This document shows, piece by piece, positions 5,620 through 35,829 of a DNA stretch of 53,723 nt. The stretch comes from an uncultured Candidatus Saccharibacteria bacterium (lineage in GTDB: Bacteria > Patescibacteriota > Minisyncoccia > Phycocordibacterales > UBA9973). Position numbers and translations under genes: made by a program. Numbering within the stretch: position 1 is the first letter of the stretch; every line of letters starts with the position of its first letter. The notes under the pieces are model-generated. The model made no database searches. It was not told the DNA's origin and was given only the letters and a program-made list of their open reading frames with translations. Where the stretch lies: assembly GCA_964432275.1 (NCBI GenBank), contig CAYSMH010000004.1, positions 1 to 53,723 of the forward strand. The letters are read 5' to 3'.

Positions 5620-5676
5620 TACTTGTAATAGGGTCTGTAGTATACTGTCCTGGTTAAAAGCTTAACTGTAACCTAT

Positions 5677-6027
5677 ATGACTACACAAGAAATAGCACAT
5701 CGTTTAGTAGAGCTCTGTCGAGCAAGCAACTTTGAGGGAGCATGGGACGAACTCTTTGCTCCTGGATGGACAACGTACGAGCTCGAGGAATGGGGAGGTG
5801 CAGTTCGTCACGGCAAAGAAGAAGCAAAAGCTGCATCTGATGAATGGCAAGCAGATATTGCAGAAATGCACGAAATGACAATCAGTGACCCTATCGTAGC
5901 TGATGACAGCTTCGCCTGTGTGATGACTATGGATATTACAAGCAAGACTCGAGGCCGTAACAAAGAGTCCGAAATCTGTGTCTACAAAGTCAAAGATGGC
6001 AAAATAGTCATCGAACGGTTTGTTTAA
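5677..6027 (+). CDS. SnoaL/NTF2-like fold protein
   Basis: 116 aa. N-terminal TTQEIAHRLVELCRASNFEGAWDELFAP and a C-terminal KDGKIVIERF beta-strand pattern. Confidence 0.45.
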   Translation: MTTQEIAHRLVELCRASNFEGAWDELFAPGWTTYELEEWGGAVRHGKEEAKAASDEWQADIAEMHEMTISDPIVADDSFACVMTMDITSKTRGRNKESEICVYKVKDGKIVIERFV

Positions 6028-6514: not shown

Positions 6515-6546
6515 AAGCGATTGGTGGATTTGGATATGCTAGTTTT

Positions 6547-6575
6547 TTGACATACGCTATAAAAAAATGTAGGGT
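6547..6575 (+). promoter_or_regulatory. Sigma70-type promoter
   Basis: TTGACA-N17-TAGGGT located 14 nt upstream of ATG 6589. Confidence 0.5.
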
Positions 6576-6588
6576 AAGAAAAAAACAT

Positions 6589-6918
6589 ATGCAAAACAAT
6601 ATCGAGTTTGTAACCGATAAAAATTGGACAGACTGCTTCAGGCTACAGTTCCCACCGTTGTTTGCCGAATATTCTATACTGCTTCGTAAGTTGAAAACTA
6701 TTAAAGGTATAAAGATTCAACAAAGATACATAGATGTATACCCTCCCTGTTTTTATCTTGAGGAAGGGGTAGTACCACAACAGATGTATACACCAGTAAC
6801 ACAAGCAATTAAAGAATGTTTCGGAGATAAGTACACAGTATCTCAAACTACCATTAGTGCTGAGGGATCGTGGTCTAGGTTTCGTAAAAAAATGAGAAAA
6901 AAAGGTTATGATTTTTAA
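6589..6918 (+). CDS. Hypothetical protein (109 aa)
   Basis: ATG preceded by a promoter-like element; the track start at 6547 is the TTG inside the -35 box. AT-rich, no family recognised. Confidence 0.5.
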   Translation: MQNNIEFVTDKNWTDCFRLQFPPLFAEYSILLRKLKTIKGIKIQQRYIDVYPPCFYLEEGVVPQQMYTPVTQAIKECFGDKYTVSQTTISAEGSWSRFRKKMRKKGYDF

Positions 6919-6934
6919 TATCATAACCTTTTTT
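6901..6934. terminator. Terminator hairpin
   Basis: 12-bp perfect stem AAAGGTTATGAT/ATCATAACCTTT, 7-nt loop, T-run. It overlaps the stop codon at 6916-6918. Confidence 0.7.
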
Positions 6935-6969
6935 AGTGCACTCGAATGTTAGAGGGTGGTTGAAATAAT

Positions 6970-7158
6970 TTAATTGATGAGATCGCTCGTAATCCACCCA
7001 AAGCAAAGATTGTTAGTTTTTAAGCCAATGCATGTATTGCGCAATTGAGCTGTAGGACTTGTTTTGTCATCAATATTACGAAACTCGGTTTCTCTGTATT
7101 GTTTAGGGAACAAGAAGAGTACTATACCAATAATAAGTATTATTTTTACTATTTTCAT
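6970..7158 (-). CDS. Small secreted/membrane peptide (62 aa, 2 Cys)
   Basis: N-terminal hydrophobic segment MKIVKIILIIGIVLFLF. Confidence 0.4.
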   Translation of the reverse strand: MKIVKIILIIGIVLFLFPKQYRETEFRNIDDKTSPTAQLRNTCIGLKTNNLCFGWITSDLIN

Positions 7159-7181
7159 ATATGGTATTTTATATCAAAAAA

Positions 7182-7209
7182 TTGTTTTAAAGAAGAAAAC
7201 ATTCGGAAT
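7182..7209 (+). repeat. Possible heavily decayed copy of the island motif
   Basis: TCAAAAAATTGTTTTAAAGAAGAAAACATTCGGAAT compared with TCAAAAAATGCTCCGAACATTAGAGGATGTTCGGAAT at 13450-13483. The right arm is conserved; the left arm is AT-degraded. Confidence 0.25.
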
Positions 7210-7255
7210 ATAATAAAGGCCTAACAAACTTGTTAAGCCTTATTTAAATTTAGAA

Positions 7256-7642
7256 TCAGCCACCACTCTCAGGGGTTAGTGCTTCATTAAAACGTTCAGC
7301 CATCAATATACCTTCTTCATTTTTAATGAAGAAAAAAACATTCTCATCAATATCTAACCAGCCAACAATACACCTCCGGTTGTTTCCATTGGATATATCT
7401 TGAAGACCGTGATACTCCCCGGAACCATCATAGTTATCATACTGTATCCAGGCTTCGATTTTTTGAACGTACCCAGAAAGCTTCTGTTGATTAATTATTA
7501 AAAGAAAATCAGTTCCACATATAGATTGCTCAACTAATGGCATAGAATTTTTATGATTTGCTATGTATGCAATTGATTTTGGAATTACACCGCACTCATA
7601 GTCCGTATTTCCCATGGAGTCAAAATTGGCAATTTTGAGCAA
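7256..7642 (-). CDS. Hypothetical protein; the frame stays open upstream to 7747 (see frameshift finding)
   Basis: 128-aa track ORF starting at TTG. A further 35 in-frame codons lie upstream without a start, and a nearby ATG (7746) is out of frame across an A7 run. Confidence 0.5.
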   Translation of the reverse strand: MLKIANFDSMGNTDYECGVIPKSIAYIANHKNSMPLVEQSICGTDFLLIINQQKLSGYVQKIEAWIQYDNYDGSGEYHGLQDISNGNNRRCIVGWLDIDENVFFFIKNEEGILMAERFNEALTPESGG

Positions 7643-7786
7643 TTCAGATATTACTTCTTTTGGGTATCCTTTGAATACTGCTATTCCACTAAAAGGACCA
7701 CTACAACCCGGTGGAGGTAGTAATCGCTGAAGTTTATTTTTTTCATGTTACTTGTTTTTAAGTTTTCTTCACCTTACAACTTAGGC

Positions 7787-7814
7787 TTGACTTTGTCAAA
7801 TAATGGAGTAGAGT
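7787..7814 (+). promoter_or_regulatory. Sigma70-type promoter
   Basis: TTGACT-N16-TAGAGT followed by GTAAACAA. The same module occurs at 10468-10495. Confidence 0.55.
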
Positions 7815-7836
7815 AGGGTAAACAAAAATCTTAACA

Positions 7837-8430
7837 ATGAAAAAAAACATCGCTACGAAAATCGAGTTTCTTCACAAGGATTATGTACCTGAAGGTGTGT
7901 ACTGTATTGATCCCATCGCTCGTAAAAATAGAGTGGAATGTTTAAAGCAATACCATATTGAAAAAAATGTTTTACATAAAATTTTACCACTTATAACAGA
8001 TGAGCCAACTGAAGAAGAAATAATCCGCCAGGATGAAGTTCAGTGTGGTACGAGCTTTTGGGCACATCGTGCTGACCCTTCCAAAGGGGAATACGTGTCT
8101 TCTGTTGGGTATAGTAGTAATACAAAAAGCGATAAGGAAATAATGGAACAGCTCGCTATTTCTACAGTTACCCCCAATGTAGTTGCCGAAAGAATTTTGC
8201 AGATACTTGAACATCAACCAGATGGCATGCAAGGTATCATTAGTAATAAAAATGTAACTATTGTCGGGTATGTGGAAATAGAGGAACATGAAGAAAGAGT
8301 CATATACCCAGTGGTGATAGGGTATATGCCGCAATACAAAAAATGGGGCATAGATGCTCAGATAGGTGTTCCGTGGTGTAATGGCTTACGTATCATTAGC
8401 AAGAACCAGTCCGCCGTTGTTACTGGTTAG
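7837..8430 (+). CDS. Hypothetical protein (197 aa)
   Basis: Long AT-rich ORF with its own promoter; no family recognised. Confidence 0.6.
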   Translation: MKKNIATKIEFLHKDYVPEGVYCIDPIARKNRVECLKQYHIEKNVLHKILPLITDEPTEEEIIRQDEVQCGTSFWAHRADPSKGEYVSSVGYSSNTKSDKEIMEQLAISTVTPNVVAERILQILEHQPDGMQGIISNKNVTIVGYVEIEEHEERVIYPVVIGYMPQYKKWGIDAQIGVPWCNGLRIISKNQSAVVTG

Positions 8431-8496
8431 CTTAATTTCATTTTATTTTTTTTAAACCATTTTATTCGATAAGATAAAATGGTTTTTTATTTTTTT

Positions 8497-8524
8497 ATTC
8501 CGAACATTAAAGGATGTTCGGAAT
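8497..8524 (+). repeat. Island att-like motif, perfect palindromic copy
   Basis: ATTCCGAACAT-TAAAGG-ATGTTCGGAAT, with 11-bp perfect arms. Confidence 0.9.
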
Positions 8525-8542
8525 GCAATTAGCTTGATTCAC

Positions 8543-8559
8543 TAGGGAGGATGTTCGAA
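8543..8559 (+). repeat. Island motif, right half-site only
   Basis: TAGGGAGGATGTTCGAA. Confidence 0.6.
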
Positions 8560-8612
8560 ATTGTTTCAAATAAAAAAACCGCACATAGGCGGCTTTTTTG
8601 TACGTTGAGTGC

Positions 8613-8903
8613 TTATAACTTTTCCAGGCTTTTTACCATTTGGTTGGAATAGGACATCAATGATAAGAATACAAGGAATATACCCAGAAGAATTCCTAAC
8701 ACTATTAATGGAGCCCATTTTGATCCATTAGGCTGACTTTCCGGTGAATTAGCCAAAGACATTAGTACTGAAATTCCAGAAATAAAAGTGCACCATGCAA
8801 AAGACTTGCGTCGATTTTTCCAGAGGGAAATCCGTTTTTCTATGGACTGCCTCATTTCCTTAGAAATGGGTACAGTCGAATCTGTTGTAGTTGATCCGCT
8901 CAT
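8613..8903 (-). CDS. Small two-TM membrane protein (96 aa)
   Basis: Two hydrophobic helices (WCTFISGISVLMSL and APLIVLGILLGIFLVFLSLM). Confidence 0.5.
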   Translation of the reverse strand: MSGSTTTDSTVPISKEMRQSIEKRISLWKNRRKSFAWCTFISGISVLMSLANSPESQPNGSKWAPLIVLGILLGIFLVFLSLMSYSNQMVKSLEKL

Positions 8904-8983
8904 ATGTTAAGTTTTCAAATACATTACAACCCAAACTTGACTTTGTCAATGAAAAAATATAATGTGTTTGGAAATTTATACCA

Positions 8984-9220
8984 ATGGCAAATATTAAAAT
9001 TAAAGACATTGTGCTCAAAGCTGGTGCTGATATCAAAAAAGGTAAAAAGTATCGCATTCTTGAGAAACATGTCCAAAACAGTACTGTAACTTCATTTCTT
9101 GTTGAACAGGTTCAGCCGGGTCTTCAAACAATAGAAAATAGAGGGGAGAAGAGTTTTATAAGTTCAAATAATACTGAACTGTTGCTGATAGAACAGGAAG
9201 AAGATTTGTACTTTGTGTAA
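8984..9220 (+). CDS. Hypothetical protein (78 aa)
   Basis: ORF downstream of TTGACT (8937-8942) and TATAAT (8958-8963). Confidence 0.45.
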   Translation: MANIKIKDIVLKAGADIKKGKKYRILEKHVQNSTVTSFLVEQVQPGLQTIENRGEKSFISSNNTELLLIEQEEDLYFV

Positions 9221-9299
9221 TTTAATACGCTTAACAAAAGAATCCACATTGATGGATTCTTTTTACATAGTTTGGCTAATACATTATTTCGTACCAAAT

Positions 9300-9342
9300 C
9301 TTCACAACATTCATGTGCTTCAAACGATAAAGAATGTTCGAG
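9300..9342 (+). repeat. Island motif, degenerate copy with upstream flank
   Basis: CTTCACAACATTCATGTGCTTCAAACGATAAAGAATGTTCGAG. The first 11 nt are identical to 16391-16401, next to tRNA-Asn. Confidence 0.6.
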
Positions 9343-9370
9343 ATATAGTGGTGAATGATATAATTATTTT

Positions 9371-9970
9371 ATGATAGTTTCAGATAGAGAACGGCAAGCT
9401 CCGACAACAGTATCAGAAGCCGAACCATCTCATTTAGCGCGCTATGAGTTTGCCCGTCAGTTCCTTAAGGGTACCGATGAAGTGTTGGATGTTCCATGTG
9501 GAAGTGGGTACGGGTCATGTCTGATGTCCAAGGTAGCAAAAAAGGTCATTGGTATTGATATTCATGCAGGAGCGATTGAACATGCAAAAGAATGTTTCCA
9601 AGAACATAATATTGAATTTGCGGTTGGCAATATGGAGACGTTAGATTCCTTGACTGTGCCATTTGATGTCGTTGTCAGTTTTGAGGGTATTGAACACATA
9701 CATAATCAAGACGCATTTTTAGAAAGTATTGCAAGACTATTGAAACCCAACGGATATTTTATAATCTCAACTCCTCGAAAACCTCACGGCAGCCCATACC
9801 ACACAATCGAATTTAATCTAGATGAATTTAAAACTATCCTGTCTGAAAAGTTTGTTATAGAGAAAATGTACGGCCAAATTTACACTGACATATTTGATAT
9901 GACTGAAAGAGAAGAAGATCCTCACGCGTACCATCGTTTCAATTTTATTGCTGTTTGTAGACTTAAATAG
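9371..9970 (+). CDS. Class I SAM-dependent methyltransferase
   Basis: Motif I VLDVPCGSGYGS and a post-I acidic residue, plus LKPNGYFIISTP. Confidence 0.8.
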   Translation: MIVSDRERQAPTTVSEAEPSHLARYEFARQFLKGTDEVLDVPCGSGYGSCLMSKVAKKVIGIDIHAGAIEHAKECFQEHNIEFAVGNMETLDSLTVPFDVVVSFEGIEHIHNQDAFLESIARLLKPNGYFIISTPRKPHGSPYHTIEFNLDEFKTILSEKFVIEKMYGQIYTDIFDMTEREEDPHAYHRFNFIAVCRLK

Positions 9971-10014
9971 ACAATTTGAACCTTAAAACATATTCGAAAT
10001 GATATACTTACTCT

Positions 10015-10413
10015 ATGAAAAAGATAAGTTCAGATATTGAATCCTATAACAGAGCACTCTCAAAAGAAGATAAAGAGATAGGAACTCTGCTTGCTACTGA
10101 AATTACACAAACTATCCCTCATGCAGAGAATAAAATTTGGCATGGACATCCAGTGTGGTTTTTAGAAGGCAATCCAATTGTTGGGTACAGTAAACTTAAA
10201 GATTCAATTCAGGTCTTGTTTTGGAGTGGTCAATCTTTCGATGAACCTTTATTAGAAAATGAAGGTAAGTATAAAGCAGCTCAAATTCGATATACTTCAA
10301 CTGATCAAATTAATACTAAGGATTTGAAGCGTTTACTAACGAAAGCCGTAGAAATACAATGGGATTACAAAAATATTGTAAAAAGGAAAGGTGAACTTGT
10401 GAGACTTTCCTAG
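10015..10413 (+). CDS. DUF1801 (YdhG-like) domain protein
   Basis: 132 aa. The pattern KIWHGHPVWFLEGNPIVGYSKLKDSIQVLFWSG matches my memory of the DUF1801 family. Confidence 0.55.
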   Translation: MKKISSDIESYNRALSKEDKEIGTLLATEITQTIPHAENKIWHGHPVWFLEGNPIVGYSKLKDSIQVLFWSGQSFDEPLLENEGKYKAAQIRYTSTDQINTKDLKRLLTKAVEIQWDYKNIVKRKGELVRLS

Positions 10414-10435
10414 TACAAGGGGAATTGGTTTTATT

Positions 10436-10462
10436 TGCTCAAAATATTAGAGGATGTTCGAA
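10436..10462 (+). repeat. Island motif, left arm degenerate
   Basis: TGCTCAAAATATTAGAGGATGTTCGAA. Confidence 0.75.
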
Positions 10463-10467
10463 AGAGT

Positions 10468-10495
10468 TTGACTTTATCTATGTGTAGGATAGAGT
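10468..10495 (+). promoter_or_regulatory. Sigma70-type promoter
   Basis: TTGACT-N16-TAGAGT followed by GTAAACAA, then ATG 10511. Confidence 0.55.
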
Positions 10496-10510
10496 GATGT
10501 AAACAATAGT

Positions 10511-10705
10511 ATGGAAACAATTTTTGAACAACCGCCGACAAAAGCAGGCAGAGTACTTAAAAAGAGAATAGAGGAAGCAGGGATTGATGTAACTGTTACG
10601 TATGTAGAAGCAGATCAAGATCCTAAGCTTTTGATAAGTGATGATCTATATCCCTATACAGGGTATGAAAAGATCGAATCTTATTTAACAAAAATTACTG
10701 CCTAA
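10511..10705 (+). CDS. Hypothetical small protein (64 aa)
   Basis: ORF bracketed by a promoter and a hairpin terminator (AGCCG..CGGCT plus T-run at 10711-10735). Confidence 0.45.
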   Translation: METIFEQPPTKAGRVLKKRIEEAGIDVTVTYVEADQDPKLLISDDLYPYTGYEKIESYLTKITA

Positions 10706-10734
10706 TTTGAAGCCGTCTTAACTGGCGGCTTTTT

Positions 10735-10761
10735 TGCTCCGAACGTTAGAGAATGTTCGAA
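10735..10761 (+). repeat. Island motif
   Basis: TGCTCCGAACGTTAGAGAATGTTCGAA. The T-run of the preceding terminator runs into it. Confidence 0.85.
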
Positions 10762-10826
10762 CTTACTTGCAGTTATAATCTGGCACAATACTGTCACACT
10801 CTTTCATAGTGACGGTTTTTTATTTC

Positions 10827-10912
10827 AGGTTCGAACTTCTACTAAGGTAGGAAAAATAATCCTTACAAAATAACACTCAAAAAATTGCTCCAGTCGTTGG
10901 ATATGTTTAGAA
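10827..10912 (+). repeat. Island motif, long (about 85 nt) form
   Basis: AGGTTCGAAC..CTTACAAAATAAC..TTGCTCCAGTCGTTGGATATGTTTAGAA. It aligns with 12802-12887 and 13398-13483. Confidence 0.8.
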
Positions 10913-10992
10913 CCGTGAATTGGGCAGAGGTGAAGAGGGAATTGGAGTATTTCTCAAACTTTCTAGAGGGTGCTCGTAAGGCGTTACAATAA
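10885..10992 (+). pseudogene. Remnant of a recombinase-type gene 3' tail
   Basis: Reads LLQSLDMFRTVNWAEVKRELEYFSNFLEGARKALQ*, which is homologous to the remnant at 14251-14367. No upstream ORF. Confidence 0.55.
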
Positions 10993-11032
10993 AAAAAAGA
11001 ATACAACGTTTGTTGTATTCTTTAAAATTTTT
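10991..11032. terminator. Bidirectional terminator
   Basis: 9-bp stem GAATACAAC/GTTGTATTC extended by A/T pairs, flanked by an A-run and a T-run. Confidence 0.7.
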
Positions 11033-11036
11033 TCTG

Positions 11037-11744
11037 TTAGTAGAGCTTAACTCCTCCTTCAGGGGTGGGGAAATTAATTCCACCAATAAATGCCCAAACT
11101 GGCGCATTACTCATAATCATTCCATTTTCAGTGCCGCGAAATTGGTGGTCGCAGTTCGGAACTACTGTAAGTTGCGCCGAAGTTTTTTTGACGAGATTGG
11201 CAAAGATTTTACCCGCTTCTACCCCAACAACCTCATCATTTGCGCCGATTACAATAAACACTTCGCCCGAAAATTCGGAAAGGCCCTTTTCAACTGATTC
11301 TTGCCCAGCATCCCCAGATGGTGCCATAAGAAGAATCTTTTTAACTTCGGGATATTCATGGCAAACCGCTGCAATCGCAGAAGCTCCTGCGGAGAAACCC
11401 ATAAGATAAATTTGCGGATTTTCTGATTTACAGATTTCAGAAGCGTGCTCAATGGCATATTCTATGACTGCTCGTACATCGTCCTGAACTGATTCAGTGT
11501 AGTCGAGCTCATCATTATATTGGTTTCCCATTTGAATCACGGCTCCAACTTTTTCCTGCAGCGATTTTGCAAGGGTGAGGTATTTGTTGTTGTACCCATT
11601 GATGTCGCCGTTAAAGCCTGGATAGTTGAGGATAATAATTTCTTTTTCCTGGTTTACATGGATAGTGATGGGTATCTCAACATTGATTTTGTTGCCCGTG
11701 ACTGTTGCAGCCTTTCTTTTTACGGTAGTGATGTGTGTTGGCAT
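11037..11744 (-). CDS. Alpha/beta hydrolase fold protein
   Basis: Nucleophile elbow LMGFSAGAS (G-x-S-x-G) and C-terminal ND/H residues (GANDEVV, CDHQF). Confidence 0.72.
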   Translation of the reverse strand: MPTHITTVKRKAATVTGNKINVEIPITIHVNQEKEIIILNYPGFNGDINGYNNKYLTLAKSLQEKVGAVIQMGNQYNDELDYTESVQDDVRAVIEYAIEHASEICKSENPQIYLMGFSAGASAIAAVCHEYPEVKKILLMAPSGDAGQESVEKGLSEFSGEVFIVIGANDEVVGVEAGKIFANLVKKTSAQLTVVPNCDHQFRGTENGMIMSNAPVWAFIGGINFPTPEGGVKLY

Positions 11745-11846
11745 TGTTTGTTTTTTAAAGTTTTACAATTTTATATATAATACAACTATATATATAATAT
11801 GTCAAATAATCCGAGTTTAGAATTATTTTAGATTTTCTTTAACTAG

Positions 11847-12218
11847 GTGTACGGTTTTGGTATGGAACCAAAGAAGCCTTGGTACAAGGAAATGATGGAA
11901 ATTACCGATATTGCAGAAAAAATCAACGATGTTATGACAAACGGCACTTTTCAGTCGAAAAGACTCATACTTTCGCAGCTTGGTTCGAACCTAGTATGGA
12001 ATGATGAAAAACTTAGTATTTATAGCAAAAAATCGATAACCATTCTTGTTGAAGGTATAAAACGTATTAGATCTGAATTTCCAAAGTTCGAACCTAAAAC
12101 TTACGCTGGTATACAAAGCTTAAATGAAAAAAACGAGCCTCTCGACCCGATTTTTTCAGCACTGCTCCGAACGGTAGAGGGTGTTCGAACTTGTTTAGCG
12201 CTGAAAGAGGGGGTTTAA
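11847..12218 (+). pseudogene. 5'-truncated recombinase-like gene (C-terminal fragment; probably large serine recombinase family)
   Basis: ..SKRLILSQLGSNLVWNDEKLSIYSKK..PKFEPKTY..SALLRTVEGVRTCLALKEGV. The tail contains the island motif. No catalytic N-terminal part is present. The family assignment is from memory only. Confidence 0.4.
12084..12189 (+). repeat. Island motif, coding master-like copy inside the gene fragment
   Basis: AAGTTCGAACC...TGCTCCGAACGGTAGAGGGTGTTCGAA. GTTCGAAC octamers lie at 11983, 12086 and 12183. Confidence 0.75.
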
Positions 12219-12243
12219 GCCTTATAAATAAAGGGTTTTAATA

Positions 12244-12272
12244 TTGACATTTTTATATAAATATGTTAATAT
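12244..12272 (+). promoter_or_regulatory. Sigma70-type promoter
   Basis: TTGACA-N17-TAATAT. Confidence 0.6.
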
Positions 12273-12356
12273 AAACCTATAAGTTCCTTGAAGGGTTTTA
12301 GTGGTTTCCAAAGGTCCCAGAGTATAGGATTTGTGGTAACCACTAAAATCAGTTAA

Positions 12357-12752
12357 ATGAAATATTCAACACAATTCCCAAAAGGTGGCACCAATAAAAT
12401 GTCGGAGCCAATGCACATTACCGCAGAATTGAAATCTATAAAAAATCTTACCATTCAGGGAAGGACATACACCCGTGACGGCTACCAACTCAGATTATTG
12501 GACAAAGACGGACAGGAGATCGGTAAGTATAATTATATACGCGGGATGATGGAAGGACCACTATCTCCGAGTAAACCCGCAAAAGATGTTGTGGAGGATA
12601 TCAATTTATTACTGGAGCTTGCAGGAAAGAAAACAAGAATCTTGCCTGAACAATTCGTTCCTGTGATGAAAGAAGTAATCAGTAAATGTGAATCACGATA
12701 CGGTAACCCAATTCCTGATTCTGATTATGAAGTGTTGGTGATGTTTCAGTAA
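12357..12752 (+). CDS. Hypothetical protein (131 aa)
   Basis: ORF with a promoter, a structured leader and a downstream terminator. The start is uncertain; alternative Met codons lie at codons 15 and 19. Confidence 0.55.
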   Translation: MKYSTQFPKGGTNKMSEPMHITAELKSIKNLTIQGRTYTRDGYQLRLLDKDGQEIGKYNYIRGMMEGPLSPSKPAKDVVEDINLLLELAGKKTRILPEQFVPVMKEVISKCESRYGNPIPDSDYEVLVMFQ

Positions 12753-12763
12753 TGTTTTTTCTT

Positions 12764-12801
12764 TGAGCTCGGCGAACTACTCGTCGAGCTCATTTTCTTT
12801 T
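12764..12801 (+). terminator. Terminator hairpin
   Basis: TGAGCTCG..CGAGCTCA stem (8 bp plus inner pairs) followed by TTTTCTTTT. Confidence 0.65.
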
Positions 12802-12887
12802 AGGTTCGAACTCCAACAAAGGTCTCCCAGATAACCCTTACAAAATAAGCTTCAAAATTTTGCTCCGAACGTTAGAGGATGTTCGAA
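12802..12887 (+). repeat. Island motif, long form
   Basis: AGGTTCGAACTCC..CCCTTACAAAATAAGCTTCAAAATTTTGCTCCGAACGTTAGAGGATGTTCGAA. Confidence 0.88.
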
Positions 12888-12894
12888 AAAATAT

Positions 12895-13383
12895 CTAACT
12901 AACGTACCCCCAACTATTACCTTGGTCTAGCTTTTCTTCAGGTTTTGATTCTTTTTTGAGTTGCTCGCCTTCATCTTCTGACACACCGACTACTTTAACA
13001 GTCTCAACTAATTCTGGAGGTAGTCTAAACTCCGAACCCTCTGCGACTGCTCCTGTTTGTAGATATTTTTCTAAATCTGCATCAGGAATATCTACATATG
13101 AAAGTACACCACCATAACTTCCTAAAAATGGGAGAGCTATTCCTTCTAAAGAATTCGTATATGAGGGGTTTTTGCCGACTTCACCTTTTCTATTACCTCG
13201 CCAAAGTCTCATGAAGCCTTCTTTGACAGGAGGAAGACTAGATCGTATTTCATTAGCTTTTTTGATAAGTTCACGGATTCGAGGGCTGTCTATATATTCA
13301 TGCCCATGACTTATCAGTTTTCCTGTTTCAGGGTTTATTTCAAATTCATTAGAATCGGTAGCTGTACCCGGTTGTTTTTCCAT
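12895..13383 (-). CDS. Hypothetical protein (162 aa)
   Basis: Clean ORF occupying one module; no family recognised. Confidence 0.55.
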   Translation of the reverse strand: MEKQPGTATDSNEFEINPETGKLISHGHEYIDSPRIRELIKKANEIRSSLPPVKEGFMRLWRGNRKGEVGKNPSYTNSLEGIALPFLGSYGGVLSYVDIPDADLEKYLQTGAVAEGSEFRLPPELVETVKVVGVSEDEGEQLKKESKPEEKLDQGNSWGYVS

Positions 13384-13397
13384 ATTTTTATTATATC

Positions 13398-13483
13398 AGG
13401 TTCGAATTTCTGATAAGGTATCAAAAATGACTATTGCAAAATAAGCTTCAAAAAATGCTCCGAACATTAGAGGATGTTCGGAA
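13398..13483 (+). repeat. Island motif, long form
   Basis: AGGTTCGAATTTC..ATTGCAAAATAAGCTTCAAAAAATGCTCCGAACATTAGAGGATGTTCGGAA. Confidence 0.88.
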
Positions 13484-13545
13484 TTTGACGTACTCCGAAA
13501 AAGGAGTAAGGTAGGAGAAATTAACTAAACTTTAAAATTTGCAAC

Positions 13546-13725
13546 ATGGTAAACGTAAACGAAGAACTTCCGAAAAAACCTGAAGAGTTGGATCCAACAG
13601 AGCTCGTTCAGCTATACACAGATTGTGTCCAACATATAGCAAAAAATGGAGAAGGTGGTTATGTTGGTACTAATAGAACCTTATTAGCTTCCGAGCTAAT
13701 AGATAGGTTAGAAAATAAAAAATGA
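13546..13725 (+). CDS. Hypothetical small protein (59 aa; below the track cutoff)
   Basis: ATG..TGA reads MVNVNEELPKKPEELDPTELVQLYTDCVQHIAKNGEGGYVGTNRTLLASELIDRLENKK. A terminator follows. Confidence 0.4.
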   Translation: MVNVNEELPKKPEELDPTELVQLYTDCVQHIAKNGEGGYVGTNRTLLASELIDRLENKK

Positions 13726-13745
13726 AATTAACATTGGTTGTATTT

Positions 13746-13780
13746 AAGTCCTTGAATTTGATATTTAAGGACTTTTCTTT
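13746..13780 (+). terminator. Terminator hairpin
   Basis: AAGTCCTT..AAGGACTT stem with a T-rich tail that runs into the next motif copy. Confidence 0.6.
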
Positions 13781-13807
13781 TGCTCCGAACCTTGGACGAT
13801 GTTCGAA
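13781..13807 (+). repeat. Island motif
   Basis: TGCTCCGAACCTTGGACGATGTTCGAA. Confidence 0.8.
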
Positions 13808-13852
13808 TAGAAATAGGGAAGTAAGCGCAAAGTATTGAAAGATGTTGATATA

Positions 13853-13880
13853 TTGACAAAAAATGTATATATAGTATGAT
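13853..13880 (+). promoter_or_regulatory. Sigma70-type promoter
   Basis: TTGACA-N16-TATGAT. Confidence 0.6.
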
Positions 13881-13917
13881 TATTAAAAATATTTTATAAC
13901 TCAAAAATAAAAGAATT

Positions 13918-13953
13918 ATGAGAAGTATGAGAAGTATGAGAAGTATGAGAAAT
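13918..13953 (+). repeat. 9-bp tandem repeat at a start codon
   Basis: ATGAGAAGT x3 plus ATGAGAAAT, giving four in-frame ATGs (MRSMRSMRSMRN). Confidence 0.9.
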
Positions 13954-14199
13954 ATAAAGTTTTTCAGTGAACTCCACTCAAATATGTTTTTTTGGTTCCT
14001 TATTATGGGAACAGTTGGAATATCGGTTCTCACGACACCGATCTGGTTGTTTAATAGGATTGAAATGAAAGGTATTTCATACAAAGTACTATTTTTCATT
14101 ATCCTTGTACTAGTGCTATGCATTATTGCCTACATAATATGGGCAACTATAATTTTCATTTTAATGAAGATCTTCCATAGAACTGAAACATCTAAGTAG
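13918..14199 (+). CDS. Small membrane protein (93 aa, 2-3 TM) with MRS repeats at the N-terminus
   Basis: Hydrophobic helices FFWFLIMGTVGISVL and VLFFIILVLVLCIIAYIIWATIIFILM, with a promoter and a terminator present. Confidence 0.5.
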   Translation: MRSMRSMRSMRNIKFFSELHSNMFFWFLIMGTVGISVLTTPIWLFNRIEMKGISYKVLFFIILVLVLCIIAYIIWATIIFILMKIFHRTETSK

Positions 14200-14212
14200 C
14201 TCGAATAGAGCA

Positions 14213-14242
14213 AGTCCTGACGAAAACGTTAGGGCTTTTTTT
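14213..14242 (+). terminator. Terminator hairpin
   Basis: AGTCCTGACG-AAAA-CGTTAGGGCT (10 bp including 2 G-U pairs) plus T7. Confidence 0.65.
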
Positions 14243-14250
14243 ATTGCTTA

Positions 14251-14367
14251 AAGTGGCTCCCTCTAATGGACAAGTTCAGAACTCTCAATTGGGTTCAAAT
14301 TAAACGAGATATTGAGTTTTCCAAGATTTTTGAGATATATTCAGAGATGGTACTTCAGAACTTGTAA
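14251..14367 (+). pseudogene. Remnant of a recombinase-type gene 3' tail (motif equivalent at 14254-14282)
   Basis: Reads KWLPLMDKFRTLNWVQIKRDIEFSKIFEIYSEMVLQNL*, which is homologous to 10885-10992. Confidence 0.55.
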
Positions 14368-14370
14368 TAG

Positions 14371-14421
14371 AAAAAACCCACTGAATAGTAGATTTTTTCT
14401 ACAATTTTCGGTGGGTTTGTT
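14371..14421. terminator. Bidirectional terminator
   Basis: 12-bp stem AAACCCACTGAA/TTCGGTGGGTTT with an inner hairpin, flanked by an A-run and a T-run. Confidence 0.7.
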
Positions 14422-15069
14422 TTAGTCTTTTCCTCCTAATGCTTTGTATTTCGCATGAGCAGTAGTACTAATTTTACCACTATTATCAAGCCAAATCCTT
14501 TCAGCTTCTGAAGCGTTGGTAATACGTGCAATCTTATCCAGCATCAGTTTTTCATATCTTGCGTAAGCTATGTCACTAACTTTGCCACTGTTGTCTAACC
14601 AGATGCGCTCTACTTCTTCTGGTTTACTGATTTTTGCAATTTTGATTGACATCAGGCTTTCGTATTTTACATAGCCAGCATCACTGATTTTTCCATAGTT
14701 GTCTAACCAGATGCGTTCTGCTTCATTGGGGTCAGTGATGGAATTGATTTTAGTTAGCATCAGGCCTTCGTATTTCACATAGGCTACATCGCTAACTTTT
14801 CCATCATTATCTAACCAAATACGCTCGAGCTCTTTAATGCTAGTAGAGTATTTAATTTTATCTAACAGTTGAAGCTCTTCTTCAGGAGATAATACTTTAC
14901 GGGTAATTTTAATCTCTGAAGATTTTGCCGTACCTGTTTTAGCTGTTGCCACTGCTTCTATTTTTGCTTCCACCTTATTTTTTTCGGGACAGTCGCAATT
15001 TGATGAGCAGGATGTAAGAATGAAACTCATGCAAATTATTGCAAGAAAAAGATAGATAATTCTTTTCAT
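14422..15069 (-). CDS. Lipoprotein with 3.7 tandem 36-aa repeats
   Basis: Signal peptide plus lipobox (FILTSC). Repeat unit is ERIWLDNxGK[VI]SDxxYxKYExLMxxKIxxIxxxxE. Confidence 0.7.
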   Translation of the reverse strand: MKRIIYLFLAIICMSFILTSCSSNCDCPEKNKVEAKIEAVATAKTGTAKSSEIKITRKVLSPEEELQLLDKIKYSTSIKELERIWLDNDGKVSDVAYVKYEGLMLTKINSITDPNEAERIWLDNYGKISDAGYVKYESLMSIKIAKISKPEEVERIWLDNSGKVSDIAYARYEKLMLDKIARITNASEAERIWLDNSGKISTTAHAKYKALGGKD

Positions 15070-15187
15070 TGTTGGTTTATTTAATTGTTTGAGATTATTG
15101 AGTTGTCCCTAGTCCCAAAAGGAGTAGGGAAAACCCAACAAAATCAACAATAAATAACCAAATATCTCAAAGGACTACTATAAGTTC

Positions 15188-15216
15188 ATCATAGCATAAA
15201 ATAGTATAAAAGTCAA
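15188..15216 (-). promoter_or_regulatory. Sigma70-type promoter for the lipoprotein gene
   Basis: On the minus strand: TTGACT-N17-TATGAT. Confidence 0.55.
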
Positions 15217-15222
15217 GTATCT

Positions 15223-15249
15223 TGCTCCGAACCTTAGAGGATGTTCGAA
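15223..15249 (+). repeat. Island motif
   Basis: TGCTCCGAACCTTAGAGGATGTTCGAA. Confidence 0.88.
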
Positions 15250-15275
15250 AAGCTTTAATCTGCTAGAATCAGTCT

Positions 15276-15902
15276 ATGAAAGACAGTGCCAAGACAATCC
15301 TTTGTTACGGAGACTCAAACACCTGGGGTGCTGTGCCAAACTCTGACGATAGATACCCTCGCAGTGTACGATGGCCTGGAGCTCTCCAAGGGCTTTTAGG
15401 AGAGGAATACGAGGTAATCAGTGAAGGTCTCAACGGCAGAACGATGGTTGTTGTCGACCCTGTAAAACCATATCGCACAGGTATTACTCATCTCCAATCT
15501 ATACTCCAAAGTGCAGACCCTATAGATACTGTTATTGTTATGCTTGGAACCAATGATATTAAGAATACATACAATCTCTCACCAAAACAGATTGCAGAAC
15601 ATCTAGAGCAAACTATCTCAATGATTATAGAAAATGATGTGATTGAGTCAGTACAGCAAATTATCATTGTTTGTCCGCCATCAATCATTCATCCTGAAGT
15701 TGGAAATCTAGATGAGCGGGTAGTGCGGGGTATAGAGCTATTTAATGTGCTTCCAAGTTTGTATAAAGAAGTTGCAGAAAAACATGGATGCGAGTTTCTA
15801 AATGCGGGGGACTGTATTTCTTCGAGTAAAAAAGACGGGTATCATCTGGATGCAGATAGTCACATTGCATTGGCAAACGCAATCAAAGGGTTAATTATTT
15901 AA
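15276..15902 (+). CDS. SGNH/GDSL-family hydrolase (esterase/lipase-like)
   Basis: Block I ILCYGDSNTWG, block II GLNGRT, block III MLGTNDI, block V DGYHLD. Confidence 0.85.
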   Translation: MKDSAKTILCYGDSNTWGAVPNSDDRYPRSVRWPGALQGLLGEEYEVISEGLNGRTMVVVDPVKPYRTGITHLQSILQSADPIDTVIVMLGTNDIKNTYNLSPKQIAEHLEQTISMIIENDVIESVQQIIIVCPPSIIHPEVGNLDERVVRGIELFNVLPSLYKEVAEKHGCEFLNAGDCISSSKKDGYHLDADSHIALANAIKGLII

Positions 15903-15904
15903 AT

Positions 15905-16378
15905 ATGCAATTCTATACCCGCAAAGATATTCTCGAAATTGTAAAACCAGACCCATCGTGGATGAATTTCGACGTTCCTGTGACGTATGAGAAAAAGACT
16001 ATTCCTTTGAAAGAGGTAATTGAGACTTTGTATAGTGTTTGGGATGATATTGAAGATTTCGAACGAGTATCCTTTATGGAATACGCAAAGGCTTTTAAAG
16101 ATAATGTAATTTCAGATATACCACAAGAACGAAAACAAAAAATATTTGAAATCTATAATAATAAATTCATTGATACAGAACTTATGGTTCCATGTTTCAT
16201 CTGCAAAGATTTGAAAATCTTGTTACCTGAGGAATATCCTCAAAACATGAAAACTCCTCACAGTGTATATATTGCAGAAGATAGAAACCATCGTCTTGTT
16301 GCACTTGCCTTACGAATTCTTGATGGAGAAAATTTAGAAGAAATACCCGTTACTGTTTTCTTTGGACATATTGCTTAG
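15905..16378 (+). CDS. Hypothetical protein (157 aa)
   Basis: Tightly follows the SGNH gene. AEDRNHRLVALAL faintly recalls the ParB/Srx D-x-x-HR motif, but that is unverified. Confidence 0.5.
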   Translation: MQFYTRKDILEIVKPDPSWMNFDVPVTYEKKTIPLKEVIETLYSVWDDIEDFERVSFMEYAKAFKDNVISDIPQERKQKIFEIYNNKFIDTELMVPCFICKDLKILLPEEYPQNMKTPHSVYIAEDRNHRLVALALRILDGENLEEIPVTVFFGHIA

Positions 16379-16381
16379 CTT

Positions 16382-16437
16382 TCTCCAGACCTTCACAACA
16401 TGCACAACGTTCACTTGCTCCCCCGGTAGGATTCGAA
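16382..16437 (+). repeat. Diverged copy of the island repeat, spanning the tRNA-Asn 3' flank and 3' end
   Basis: TCTCCAGACCTTCACAACATGCACAACGTTCACTTGCTCCCCCGGTAGGATTCGAA compared with the long copy at 12823-12887. Both share the TCTCC.AGA, CTT.ACAA.AT, TTGCTCC and GGAT.TTCGAA blocks. Confidence 0.45.
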
Positions 16438-16489
16438 CCTACGACCAATCGCTTAACAGGCGACTGCGCTACCGCTGCGCCACAGGGGA
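16418..16489 (-). tRNA. tRNA-Asn (GTT)
   Basis: Cloverleaf with acceptor TCCCCTG/CGGGGGA, anticodon loop CTGTTAA and T-arm GTAGG-TTCGAAT-CCTAC. CCA is not encoded. Confidence 0.9.
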
Positions 16490-28760: not shown

Positions 28761-30068
28761 ATGAAATCATCATTTCAAACAATTCTCGTCATCCTTTTTG
28801 TCGTTGTTTTTGCAGGCGCGGTTATGGTATTTTCGGGAATCATACCCATCGGCTCCAAACAAGCAGCAGCTACTCCTTCGGGTACTGTGGTGATGTGGGG
28901 TACTGCACCGCAAACACTTATGCAGCAGTATGTCGATAGTCTCGTCGCGTCTGTCAGTGGTGAGTATGCGATCAGATATATAGAGCGTGATGTTGATACA
29001 TTTGAGCAAGATATGATCGTGGCACTTGCCAATGGTGATGCGCCTGATCTAGTAATGTTTCCCTCAGAGTTGATCGAACGACTCAAAAGTAGACTCTATG
29101 TAATACCCTATGCAGCCTACAGTGAGCGACTCTATCGTGATACTCATATCGAAGGTGCACAGCTTTTCTTGCGCAAAGATGGTGTACTCGCATTACCACT
29201 TGTAGTTGATCCGCTTGTGGTGTATTACAACAAAGATATTCTTGCTGCAAAAAACTTCGTAGTTCCTCCAAAGACATGGTCAGATCTTCAGCGTGTGATA
29301 CCACTTCTGACTATTCGTGACACGAGAGGTACTATCACACAGTCGACTATTGCGCTTGGTGGAGTTACCAACGTTGCTCATGCTCGAGATATACTTTCGG
29401 CACTATTTCTACAAACGGGAAACAGTATTGTTTCGTACCAACCGTCAACTGATAGTAGTTCTGTGGTGCTAGGTATGACTCCTGCTGGGGCCGAGAGTGC
29501 ACCCACTGCACAAGCACTTGAGTTTTATACGAGTTTTGCAAACCCTACCAGTAGCAACTACTCATGGAATAGCGGATTCCCTAGTAGTTTGACACAGTTT
29601 ATTGCTGGCAAAAGTGCATTTTATATTGGACGGGCGAGTGAGTTGTTTACTATCCAAGCACAAAATCCCAACCTCAACTTCGATGTATCAGAGCTCTTTC
29701 AGACAGGGGTAGGGTCTCGACCTATTACGTTTGGATCATTTACCGCAGTCGGTGTTATGAAAAACGCACCCAACTTCACCACTGCATACGCAGCAGCAAC
29801 AGCTATGAGTAGTGCTGCAGGAATAGATGCACTCTCTAAAACTCTCTCACTTGCTCCAGCGCGACGTGACTTACTGCTTGTTCAACAGGCAAATCCATAT
29901 GTATCAACATTCTTTACCGCAGCACTGTCTGCGTTTGGGTGGGCTGATCCAAATCCAGTGACTACTACTGCCACATTCCAATCAATGGTTGCTGATGTAC
30001 AAAGCGGCAAGAGTGTTCCACAAACAGCACTTTTTGAAGCTGTGCGTAAGTTACAATCTGCATTATGA
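28761..30068 (+). CDS. Extracellular solute-binding-protein-like (ABC SBP family 1-like), membrane-anchored
   Basis: N-terminal TM helix, then VVMWGT.., GDAPDLVMFP, DPLVVYYNKDIL..PPKTWSDL, typical of SBP_bac_1-type proteins. No permease or ATPase gene is adjacent. Confidence 0.62.
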   Translation: MKSSFQTILVILFVVVFAGAVMVFSGIIPIGSKQAAATPSGTVVMWGTAPQTLMQQYVDSLVASVSGEYAIRYIERDVDTFEQDMIVALANGDAPDLVMFPSELIERLKSRLYVIPYAAYSERLYRDTHIEGAQLFLRKDGVLALPLVVDPLVVYYNKDILAAKNFVVPPKTWSDLQRVIPLLTIRDTRGTITQSTIALGGVTNVAHARDILSALFLQTGNSIVSYQPSTDSSSVVLGMTPAGAESAPTAQALEFYTSFANPTSSNYSWNSGFPSSLTQFIAGKSAFYIGRASELFTIQAQNPNLNFDVSELFQTGVGSRPITFGSFTAVGVMKNAPNFTTAYAAATAMSSAAGIDALSKTLSLAPARRDLLLVQQANPYVSTFFTAALSAFGWADPNPVTTTATFQSMVADVQSGKSVPQTALFEAVRKLQSAL

Positions 30069-30979: not shown

Positions 30980-30996
30980 CGGTATACTACTATAGT

Positions 30997-32118: not shown

Positions 32119-32120
32119 TT

Positions 32121-33867: not shown

Positions 33868-34473
33868 CTATTTCAGGTATGCAGTGTATGTTACGTTCAC
33901 CGTTTTATCACTGATTAGTTTGGCATGTATGTGCCCGTAGGGTATTGTGCCTGTATAATCGTACTGCCTATACCCAGGTACACTGTCGGCATCTCTCCAT
34001 GCTTGGTACATGTAGTGACTACTGCGATCCTTGGTGTAGATGAATACTGTAATGGTGTCGTGAATGTTCACTGGGAGCCAGTATTTCTGTAGAGGCTCAC
34101 TTTTCCATGTGTGCACGGTACCGGGTTGCCATGTGAATTCTTCGCCGAGACGGAGACTCTCTGGTCCTGTACCAGTCACAGCTGAGACATGTTGTGTTTG
34201 CAACATATCTGTTTTGATTGAGTGACTACTGTACTGTATTGGAGCAGGGGGTGATGTAGGTCGATTGTCCCGCCAGCCAAGAAAGTATACTAGGAAAAAT
34301 AAAATAATTCCTATGCCTGCTCCTACACCCAAAGCTTTTAATAACCACAAAGGTGTTTTTTTAAAGGTATCAATAGTTCCTCTCCATGAGTTTTTAAACT
34401 TGATACGTTTCTTGTTATTGATATAGTATCCTATGCCAACAACAATGAAAATCGTAATGAGTGTTACTATCAT
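33868..34473 (-). CDS. Membrane-anchored hypothetical protein (201 aa)
   Basis: Two N-terminal TM helices and a beta-rich C-domain. The start overlaps the stop of the upstream gene (ATGA). Confidence 0.55.
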   Translation of the reverse strand: MIVTLITIFIVVGIGYYINNKKRIKFKNSWRGTIDTFKKTPLWLLKALGVGAGIGIILFFLVYFLGWRDNRPTSPPAPIQYSSHSIKTDMLQTQHVSAVTGTGPESLRLGEEFTWQPGTVHTWKSEPLQKYWLPVNIHDTITVFIYTKDRSSHYMYQAWRDADSVPGYRQYDYTGTIPYGHIHAKLISDKTVNVTYTAYLK

Positions 34474-35696: not shown

Positions 35697-35829
35697 ATGT
35701 TTTTTTGTTTTTATTTTTTTAAAGAATGTTGTTTAAATGTTTGATTATTTTATAACAAATATATAGATTTTGTCAATAAAAAAAACCGTCTCCATAAGGA
35801 AACGGTTGTGAGTGTGTTTCGATCGTAAT

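Follow-up and report, generated by a model that had tools for sequence, protein, structure and literature searches.

A tRNA-Asn-anchored array of miniature modules in a Patescibacteria genome, probably built by serial accretion at a large serine recombinase attachment site

Introduction

Patescibacteria have tiny, streamlined genomes in which few mobile elements have been characterised, and the locus described here raises the question of how about 15 small modules came to be stacked in such a genome between copies of one short repeat. It lies in a stretch of 53,723 nucleotides (contig CAYSMH010000004.1 of assembly GCA_964432275.1, forward strand; called the window below) from an uncultured bacterium deposited as Candidatus Saccharibacteria, whose GyrA places it among the Paceibacteria/Nomurabacteria-type Patescibacteria. 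The modules, 0.1–1.3 kb each, form an island of low GC content that reaches from a conserved left flank to a tRNA-Asn gene. An initial annotation, made from the letters of the window, had read this island as an accretion array made by site-specific recombination around a 27-nt dyad-symmetric motif. Site-specific accretion is usually described for large elements with tyrosine integrases or for the staphylococcal cassette chromosome (SCC).

In this work we found that the motif is linked to the ends of large serine recombinase (LSR) genes and to tRNA-Asn, that its orientation is constant, that homology between genomes breaks at its core, and that relatives carry different modules at the same locus. 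The proposal of accretion by site-specific recombination is thereby borne out, through an LSR pseudogene, the tRNA-Asn target, the core breakpoints and the variation of modules among relatives. We consider it probable that the array arose by serial site-specific accretion of small LSR elements and of recombinase-less cassettes at the tRNA-Asn core.

Results

A co-oriented motif divides the island

The pattern CCGAACRT-N6-ATGTTCG, searched with up to three mismatches, has 16 matches in the window, compared with 2.75 ± 1.9 expected; in 100 shuffles this number was never reached. The independent matches all lie on the + strand between 8.5 and 15.3 kb, those on the – strand being palindromic echoes of them, and the same-strand array is therefore real. 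Of the motif copies on the + strand in this interval, eight are strong, two are degenerate and one is a half copy. A related variant of 110 nt is present twice, and two or three decayed copies lie farther left, which makes about 15 co-oriented copies in total. A repeat search found a nine-member family (at 8492, 9312, 10432, 10731, 12159, 12857, 13452, 13777 and 15219), with a spacing of 150–1440 nt and genes between copies. A profile hidden Markov model (HMM; nhmmer), trained on 55 copies from other genomes and then run on the window, recovered 8 strong copies (27–40 bits), a half-site at 8546–8561 (12.5 bits) and weak copies at 9312 and 6943; in the rest of the window, ~44 kb where the initial annotation had seen none either, no match exceeded 7 bits.

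Most of the copies listed initially were recovered, but those at 10886 and 14254 belong to a related yet distinct family of ~110 nt, type B, which also opens with TTGCTCC; the copy proposed at 7182–7209 is doubtful, and two decayed copies, 6937–6964 and 9975–9999, were absent from that list. The feature thus spans from ~6.5 kb to the tRNA-Asn (16417–16489), beyond the 8497–15249 interval first delimited. The left edge of the copies is ragged, as had been noted, with 84-nt repeats at 10818, 12793 and 13389 and a 300-nt extension at 11880–12191. The right edge, which had been described as abrupt, is indeed sharp in the information profile, save for a conserved T at +33.

The motif is the end of a family of serine recombinase genes

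An open reading frame (ORF) at 11847–12218 reads in frame into the motif copy at 12163, and its homologues are the C-termini of LSRs of 575–585 amino acids (aa) from Patescibacteria. The window fragment matches aa 465–568 of a 574-aa protein with 61% identity (tblastn); this protein is encoded in L028 (L-numbers label the loci or contigs from other genomes that were compared with the window). The full-length proteins of the family, that of L028 included, contain Resolvase and Recombinase domains (Pfam). The motif, TGCTCC followed by ~21 nt, is the sequence that ends the LSR genes of this Patescibacteria family: the intact LSRs of L028 and L080 end in it (...MLRTWDDVRT... and ...WLRTLEDVRNSL..., respectively), and that of L053 ends in a long type-B tail. 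One reading frame of the motif encodes LLRTLEDVR; its low-information positions 10, 13, 16 and 25 are third codon positions of this frame, and the conserved T at +33 falls on the middle base of the following conserved Leu/Ile codon. In alignments, type-B copies retain a 37-codon open tail with differences of the synonymous type, and the open frame of the first of them (S8 in Table 1) may be read as a recombinase coding tail past the crossover. The information profile agrees with a coding origin overlaid on a constraint at the DNA level.

Taken from representative genomes, 42 loci encode this LSR family. In at least 20 of them the last LSR codons overlap tRNA-Asn in antisense (...FSTLLRG*), with the stop codon in the T-stem, and a sub-clade overlaps tRNA-Ser in the same way. 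The array of the window adjoins its tRNA-Asn with the orientation seen for these LSR genes. An integrated LSR thus has 7–37 C-terminal codons swapped for 2–3 codons and a stop from the antisense tRNA. The LSR-to-tRNA and LSR-to-motif junctions have only TGCTC(C) in common, which indicates that the motif takes the place of the antisense tRNA 3' half and suggests that it is the element-side remainder of a crossover in TGCTCC. The motif would then correspond to the crossover core TGCTCC plus the P' half-site (~21–28 bp) of the attachment site of this LSR family. The attP of the LSR elements appears to overlap the 3' end of the LSR gene itself, and the chromosomal target (the B' half) is probably the extreme 3' end of tRNA-Asn, with the crossover dinucleotide, and a catalysed cut, presumably within T-G-C.

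The geometry of the motif supports this assignment. Counted from the T of TGCTCC, the last base of its distal element GGAT(G)TTCGAA is at +26 in the motif, whereas in the antisense tRNA-Asn it is at +21. Relative to attP, the attB sites of serine integrases have the zinc-ribbon-domain (ZD) motif shifted by ~5 bp towards the centre (PMC3783163), and at the level of sequence the two ends match this 5-bp shift, as would be expected of attP and attB half-sites. In sites with a left arm TTCACAAC...AACGTTCAC, arm and motif together form a ~52-bp imperfect palindrome centred on T-G-C. The clearest case is L015 (CTCGAACATCTACAACGTTCACG TGCTCC AAACGTTAGAGGATGTTCGGA), with an alignment score of 25 against a shuffle maximum of 18, and the palindromic arm is also present in L013, in L023 and at the tRNA junction of the window. 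The latter arm, of the TTCAC type, mirrors the right half of the motif, and the same arm type precedes sites in L013, L015, L016, L018 and L023. The few sites with both halves would resemble the attachment sites of A118/LI, Bxb1 and phiC31, as a ~50-bp imperfect inverted repeat around a central dinucleotide, and the ZD-motif shift is a further resemblance. The motif differs from those sites in that most copies are one half-site, that each half contains an internal inverted repeat (CGAAC...GTTCG), and that the site is embedded in coding sequence. It reads best as the core and P' half of a ~50-bp serine-integrase site.

We also considered that the motif might be a plain copy of the tRNA-Asn 3' end, and rejected this. 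Only TGCTCC and the shifted GGAT..TCGAA element are common to the two, and the motif is 5 nt longer; owing to this limited overlap and the extra length, it is not a tRNA copy able to restore the gene.

The LSR family itself shows some features that are worth recording. Homologues from Bacteroidota (L067, L068, L072 and L073; Flavobacteriaceae, Rhodothermales), 35–39% identical, natively encode ...LLRGLDDVRTFLL... near the C-terminus, and the L028 contig, binned as Bacteroidia, carries phage-like RepO and helix–turn–helix (HTH) genes common to Bacteroidota elements; the LSR family therefore crosses phyla. In phage and plasmid collections the relatives of the LSR are at most 30% identical. A conserved ORF of 70–106 aa, with no Pfam match, lies ~300–800 nt upstream of the LSR gene in L036, L040, L047, L049, L051, L053, L059 and L061, and is a candidate directionality factor or regulator.

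Homology breaks at the core in comparisons between genomes

The left flank of the island (BacA, RsmE and VanY genes) is syntenic in L001, L013 and L022, and its right flank (tRNA-Asn, pyruvate kinase, hibernation factor and formyltransferase genes) in L006, L010, L016, L017 and L023, with varying content in between. The comparison of syntenic loci beside tRNA-Asn, which the initial annotation had called for, thus revealed arrays at the same locus with different modules. L013/L095, L100 and L101 have other content and 1–4 sites, the number of sites at the locus ranging from one (L101) to ~15 (window); with L098, described below, these loci differ in modules from the window, and the invariant sister locus that would have spoken against accretion was not seen.

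The segment 12163–12350 of the window (P', promoter and structured leader) follows a site in L004, L005, L010, L023 and L080. One and the same P', with 110–185 nt of right flank, adjoins five unrelated left arms; similarity sets in precisely at TGCTCC. Conversely, the 150-nt arm to the left of 15223 has ~85% identity in L009, where similarity ends two bases before GCTCC; the site that this arm adjoins is of type A in the window but of type B in L009. L098 shares with the window the SnoaL gene (5675–6026) and a block from 9316 to ~10435 with the methyltransferase and DUF1801 genes; both are ~90% identical, compared with 78–81% for the backbone. The block starts at the first base of S4 and ends in the core of S6, and across S6 the two sequences are only 63% identical, like any two copies of the motif, which indicates that modules were exchanged core to core. 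As this block is more similar than the core genome, it points to transfer rather than common descent, and suggests a recent horizontal exchange, as does the SnoaL gene. The window modules common to L098 are those distal to the tRNA; within them, the L098 equivalent of the decayed S5 (1103–1124) is better preserved.

The motif recurs in a broader sample. Exact-pattern matches to the motif were found in 26 stretches of representative genomes, nearly all from Patescibacteria, and in 18 metagenome stretches, with none in viral contigs. Over the window and the exact-pattern matches in one representative genome per species, which is the scope of this test, no genome-wide scatter of the motif was seen: there are one or two loci per representative genome, mostly beside the same conserved genes. 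At least 27 loci in other Patescibacteria have two to six sites each, always in one orientation within a locus, and the sites point at the antisense tRNA-Asn wherever the contig includes the tRNA. Each class of left arm (LSR gene, 68-nt arm, TTCAC arm, terminator with T-tract) is also found directly beside tRNA-Asn in some genome, and in L010 the array is followed by an intact LSR abutting the tRNA.

The main competitor of LSR-driven accretion is ordinary homologous recombination, duplication and deletion among prophage-like elements with similar LSR 3' ends, the repeats being inert relics that never saw LSR catalysis. It would account for the lack of a second half-site at most sites, for the visible decay of copies 6937, 9316 and 9975, and for the population contigs (described below), which either are identical in sequence to the window or follow its gene order. 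We nevertheless hold it to be unlikely, because breakpoints lie within a few bases of TGCTCC in every comparison, and recombination over 27-nt repeats would not yield one precise junction with many unrelated arms. Neither the single orientation relative to tRNA-Asn over at least 27 loci nor the recurrence of every arm class at the tRNA itself agrees with it.

In several relatives (L010, at 6607–7235, L100, L023, L037, L074 and L008) tRNA-Asn is split in its anticodon loop by a group I intron of ~575 nt (Rfam RF00028, 66.9 bits, E = 1e-16), with an HNH endonuclease ORF inside. The tRNA-Asn of the window is without intron. L099 (1–316, 96.7% identical) diverges from the window exactly at 16456, at the place in the tRNA that an intron would occupy; an intron there is unconfirmed by Rfam or ORF analysis.

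The dyad is not maintained as a structure

The 27-nt dyad on which the initial annotation centred is not the functional unit, whether as an 11-6-11 tyrosine-recombinase core or as a hairpin. Conservation is asymmetric, with TGCTCC on the left side only, and the dyad CGAAC...GTTCG sits inside one half-site. Across 74 distinct copies the stem shows no covariation, the proportion of paired cells being 79.9% compared with 79.8% in shuffles, and no compensatory change, G-to-A changes on one arm being uncompensated. The consensus is thus dyad-symmetric, with no compensatory changes that would preserve the symmetry, and a folded attC-like site is unsupported. A folded hairpin, attC-like or RNA, was rejected on this ground, Rfam reporting only tRNAs in the window. 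A dif/Xer site was rejected as well: the cumulative GC skew climbs monotonically over the locus with no switch there, and the window contains no Xer gene.

For the same reasons it is very improbable that the motif is a site for a tyrosine recombinase, whether an attC-like fold in an array resembling a cluster of attC sites lacking integron-integrases (CALIN), or a Xer/dif-like core as in Acinetobacter pdif modules and integrative mobile elements exploiting Xer (IMEX). Copy 8496–8524 does have perfect 11-bp arms around 6 nt, and small cassettes with a single site orientation are what such a system would produce. However, attC sites are longer than 55 nt, compared with 27 nt here; cassettes of the window bring their own promoters and occur in either orientation; the orientation of pdif sites alternates, whereas the window copies are all co-oriented; and none of the ~45 ORFs scanned in the window has a Phage_integrase-type match. 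The motif is, moreover, demonstrably the end of a serine-recombinase gene.

The modules carry small genes of both orientations

Cassette genes lie in both orientations and have their own promoters and terminators; the module 10762–10885 is without a gene. Terminator-like hairpins are enriched (13, compared with 6.7 ± 2.3 expected) and several lead into a site, in agreement with the initial description of terminators running into the motif; promoter-like matches, also described, show no overall enrichment (35 against 33), although several copies are followed by good TTGAC-type sites, a TTGAC(A/T) –35 box often beginning 5–6 nt 3' of the motif. A phage or defence nature of the cargo was considered and rejected, as PHROGs gave no match on it and PADLOC only a generic methyltransferase match; NCBIfam gave only a weak SLATT match and an SGNH esterase match. 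Neither terminal inverted repeats nor target-site duplications were found around the modules.

This organisation brings to mind a regulatory or insulating element, for example an operator upstream of the –35 box or a terminator-associated signal, that spread with the island genes, since the –35 box is so often placed next to the motif and terminator T-tracts lead into it. We give this idea slightly less weight still than a tyrosine-recombinase site. The motif also precedes genes of the opposite strand and the gene-free module, it faces tRNA-Asn whatever the direction of the genes and belongs to LSR coding sequence, its left edge is where homology breaks, and promoter-like matches show no overall enrichment. 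Least probable of all is a selfish repeat spreading by transposition, akin to repetitive extragenic palindromes (REP), bacterial interspersed mosaic elements (BIME) or miniature inverted-repeat transposable elements (MITE): the motif is short, partly palindromic, intergenic and multi-copy, yet it is absent from the other 44 kb, its exact-pattern matches are confined to one or two loci in each representative genome, its orientation is constant and neither of the repeats that transposition leaves is present. A clustered regularly interspaced short palindromic repeat (CRISPR) array was rejected on its spacing (150–1440 nt with genes between, not a regular 25–50 nt). The initial exclusion of REP, CRISPR and classical integron stands, given the lack of dispersed copies within this scope, the irregular spacing and the absence of IntI.

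Several segments of the modules deserve mention in their own right. The leader 3' of S9 (12190–12356) has a ~19-bp hairpin (stem ~12298–12345) without match in Rfam, with compensatory changes (AGTGG...CCACT vs AGTAG...CTACT); this segment is kept in L004, L005 and L080, less clearly in L010 and L023, and the downstream genes differ. Promoter/5' untranslated region (UTR) segments at 7737–7841 and 15070–15222 have 75–85% identity in other arrays (L001, L010, L013 and L015 for the first, L009 for the second), with unrelated coding sequences attached, which gives the modules a mosaic look even below the level of the gene. A small membrane-protein ORF (13918–14199; MRSMRSMRSMR...) opens with four 9-nt units in tandem (GAGAAGTAT; 13905–13955), which could make a slippage-prone, phase-variable start. 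A lipoprotein gene (14422–15069) contains three in-frame 108-nt repeats (14531–14834; peptide ...ERIWLDN.GK.SD..Y.KYE.LM....).

Features of the locus

The features of the island are collected in Table 1. The consensus score of the copies in the window rises towards the tRNA (Spearman 0.81, p = 0.0014), and the same gradient is found in L013.

Table 1. Positions of the island, the motif copies and the associated features in the window
Feature	Position	Strand	Evidence and remarks
Low-GC island with array	6515..16416	none	GC 0.35–0.37 vs flanks 0.42–0.50; flank synteny
S1, decayed type A (TGCACTCGAATGTTAGAGGGTGGTTGAA)	6937..6964	+	Directly 3' of terminator hairpin 6898–6934; weak nhmmer match 6943–6958; repeat-family member
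Possible very decayed copy, recognisable only as ...AACATTCGGAAT	7182..7209	+	nhmmer ~2 bits; weak
S3, type A, perfect 11-bp arms	8496..8524	+	Terminator T-tract leads into S3; 27.4 bits
Isolated distal half-site (GGAGGATGTTCGAAAT), without TGCTCC core	8543..8561	+	12.5 bits, E = 0.005
S4, degenerate type A, TTCACAACATTCATG arm before it	9316..9342	+	Left edge of L098-shared block; L098 homology begins exactly at 9316
S5, decayed, core lost	9975..9999	+	Between methyltransferase and DUF1801 genes; repeat-family member
S6, type A	10436..10462	+	L098-shared block stops at S6 core
S7, type A	10735..10761	+	Directly 3' of terminator
68-nt left arm like recombinase 3' end (frame ...GSN...)	10818..10885	+	Repeat family; same arm adjoins tRNA-Asn in L006, L017
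S8, type B: TTGCTCC + ~105 nt with open frame (LLQSLDMFRTVNWAEVKRELEYFSNFLEGARKALQ*)	10883..10998	+	Alignment; 71 bits
LSR pseudogene fragment	11847..12218	+	Protein matches; tblastn 60.6% identity at 11880–12191; in frame into S9
S9, type A, left arm = recombinase 3' end	12163..12189	+	attP-like P-O-P' junction
Conserved left end of one element type: promoter TTGACA-17-TAATAT and 5' leader with long hairpin	12190..12356	+	
68-nt recombinase-3'-like left arm	12793..12860	+	Repeat family
S10, type A, same as consensus	12861..12887	+	40.5 bits
68-nt recombinase-3'-like left arm	13389..13455	+	Repeat family
S11, type A	13456..13482	+	Pattern and profile
S12, type A	13781..13807	+	Directly 3' of terminator 13746–13774
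S13, type B, open tail frame (...FRTLNWVQIKRDIEFSKIFEIYSEMVLQNL*)	14252..14365	+	101 bits; directly 3' of terminator 14212–14237
S14, type A	15223..15249	+	150-nt left arm common to L009, where a type-B site follows
tRNA-proximal junction: TTCAC-type arm (CTTCACAACATGCACAACGTTCACT) then TGCTCC overlapping last tRNA-Asn bases	16383..16421	+	
tRNA-Asn (GTT), right border of the island, 3' end towards the array	16417..16489	–	ARAGORN; Rfam 69 bits; intact

Two observations concern other parts of the window. A second low-GC patch (0.38), at 33868–36432, has three ORFs (201, 408 and 200 aa) without Pfam match and adjoins a cluster of four tRNAs (36658–37048); it may be another small island. At 30065–32972, three successive genes, each with a terminal domain resembling type IV secretion system (T4SS) pilins (PF18895), come after a solute-binding-protein gene.

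Discussion

This work identifies the repeat of the window as the end of LSR genes and places it at the boundaries along which modules differ between relatives. The way in which such an array would be built can be outlined in three steps. In the first, the products of which are seen at many loci, an element with an attP composed of the LSR 3' end, TGCTCC and P' would integrate at the tRNA-Asn 3' end. Integration would join the LSR 3' end via TGCTCC to the antisense tRNA, and the far end would be left as an arm–TGCTCC–P' junction. In the second step, which we infer, a further element or cassette would recombine with a resident core, most likely the tRNA-proximal one, so that the right end of each module becomes the left arm of the next site. 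Serial addition at this core explains why all cores and P' halves face the tRNA, and every arm class is expected beside the tRNA if modules enter there. Entry at the tRNA-proximal core also fits the LSR beside the tRNA in L010, the decay gradient in the window and the distal position of the modules shared with L098. In the third step the recombinase genes would be lost, and most are gone, as in cis-mobilizable elements (CIME) or psi-SCC elements; what is left of them in the window is one 300-nt pseudogene and three 68-nt arms. The island would thus be a stack of ~15 events involving small integrative elements and, for the most part, recombinase-less modules made of a promoter, one or two genes and a terminator. 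Integration, decay to an element with only its attachment sites, and integration of the next element into the attachment site with the gene end is the published accretion model for CIMEs and integrative and conjugative or mobilizable elements (ICE/IME) (PMC5704250). As in other accretion islands, the anchor gene, tRNA-Asn, is intact and the core overlaps its last bases. By this reasoning the sites presumably are, or were, active.

Several observations weigh against LSR-driven accretion. The window lacks an intact LSR, and the ~45 ORFs scanned with Pfam, all of them housekeeping genes, include no recombinase of any type. A tblastn search for LSR remnants in 14 other arrays found none, which makes it less likely that the modules each lost an LSR of their own in situ. 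Only 3–5 of 98 sites have a left arm mirroring P' (above the 99th percentile of shuffles), most copies being one half only, and the LSR-coding P arm is only weakly symmetric with P'. About one third of the sites abut a terminator T-tract precisely; this precision, together with the scarcity of LSR debris, is not explained by a simple in situ decay of full elements. The decay gradient is reversed in L088 and absent or flat in L006, L016 and L023, and polar growth of the array is therefore only presumed. Lastly, neither an excised circle, nor an empty site, nor polymorphism within the population was found in three other contigs of this population: the Logan contig L032 matches the window at 100% identity for 11.2 kb and breaks off within the tRNA at 16446, L033 and L034 have the same gene order, and the population contigs break inside tRNA-Asn.

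Characterised serine integrases require both half-sites, and with so few sites having both, most may be inert scars. The missing halves and debris leave two possibilities: either deletion of the recombinase genes is remarkably tidy, or recombinase-less cassettes are moved in trans with relaxed half-site needs. Deletion by microhomology between terminator T-tracts and the T6 of the LSR gene was considered and not established: a T-rich tract is present at –10 to –5 in 46–63% of arms, with a spacing 2 nt off that of the LSR arm. The second of the two possibilities leads to a bolder proposal, which we put forward tentatively and regard as clearly less assured than accretion itself: the locus might be a serine-recombinase capture platform, integron-like, in which recombinase-less cassettes (promoter, gene, terminator and a 30–100-bp attachment site) are moved in trans by an LSR encoded elsewhere, stockpiled at the tRNA-Asn core and exchanged core to core between lineages, one well-defined half-site being enough.

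Serial accretion at a gene end has precedents, and the mechanism class, site-specific accretion at a gene 3' end with recombinase-less units, is already known. A close parallel is that of composite SCC/SCCmec and psi-SCC islands built by the Ccr serine recombinases (PMC12648241), which share with the window LSRs acting at the 3' end of a conserved gene (rlmH/orfX), tandem elements separated by attachment-site repeats of the same orientation, and many units without recombinase genes. The recombinases are unrelated in sequence, however, and the window has a tRNA in place of rlmH as target, a Patescibacteria host, modules of 0.1–1.3 kb, up to ~15 per array, instead of 8–60 kb, and a family attP that appears to lie inside the 3' end of the recombinase gene. 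ICE/IME–CIME tandems (ICESt1/ICESt3, IME_Sag2603_tRNAlys) have the same inferred history and a tRNA 3' end as anchor; unlike the window, where a serine recombinase is implicated, modules are miniature and many and no transfer genes are present, they mostly rely on tyrosine integrases, bring together two or three large elements and are transferred by conjugation.

Sedentary chromosomal integrons and CALINs resemble the window in their long arrays of co-oriented short repeats, in cassettes of 0–2 unrelated genes, mostly of unknown function, and in the fast turnover of content between relatives. They differ in their folded attC site of 57–141 nt, with R''/L''–L'/R' boxes and extrahelical bases, whereas the conserved unit of the window is 27 nt and without structural covariation; in the window there is no IntI, the anchor is a tRNA and not attI, and cassettes carry promoters and terminators in both orientations. 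SSV1-type archaeal integrases also have attP inside the integrase gene, so that integration into a tRNA alters the integrase reading frame, but these are tyrosine recombinases whose gene is split in two, while the LSR family only exchanges its tail. What appears to be new here is the LSR family, the tRNA-Asn 3' end as a serine-recombinase target, the attP in the tail of the integrase gene, the miniature and numerous modules, and the lineage. Full-text literature searches found no description of such an array, or of tRNA-Asn-targeting LSR elements, in Patescibacteria, as the initial annotation had supposed for the array.

In conclusion, this locus is a conserved hotspot for the gain and loss of accessory genes, and its modules are bounded to the base, which makes gene flux in Patescibacteria traceable. 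The arrays suggest that a serine recombinase could also yield cassettes of the size of those of integrons, and that integration would rewrite the C-terminus of the protein. The predicted set of parts, namely the integrase family, its attP (gene end, TGCTCC, ~25 bp) and its attB (tRNA-Asn 3' end), could, if functional, serve as an integration tool in bacteria that are hard to manipulate genetically.

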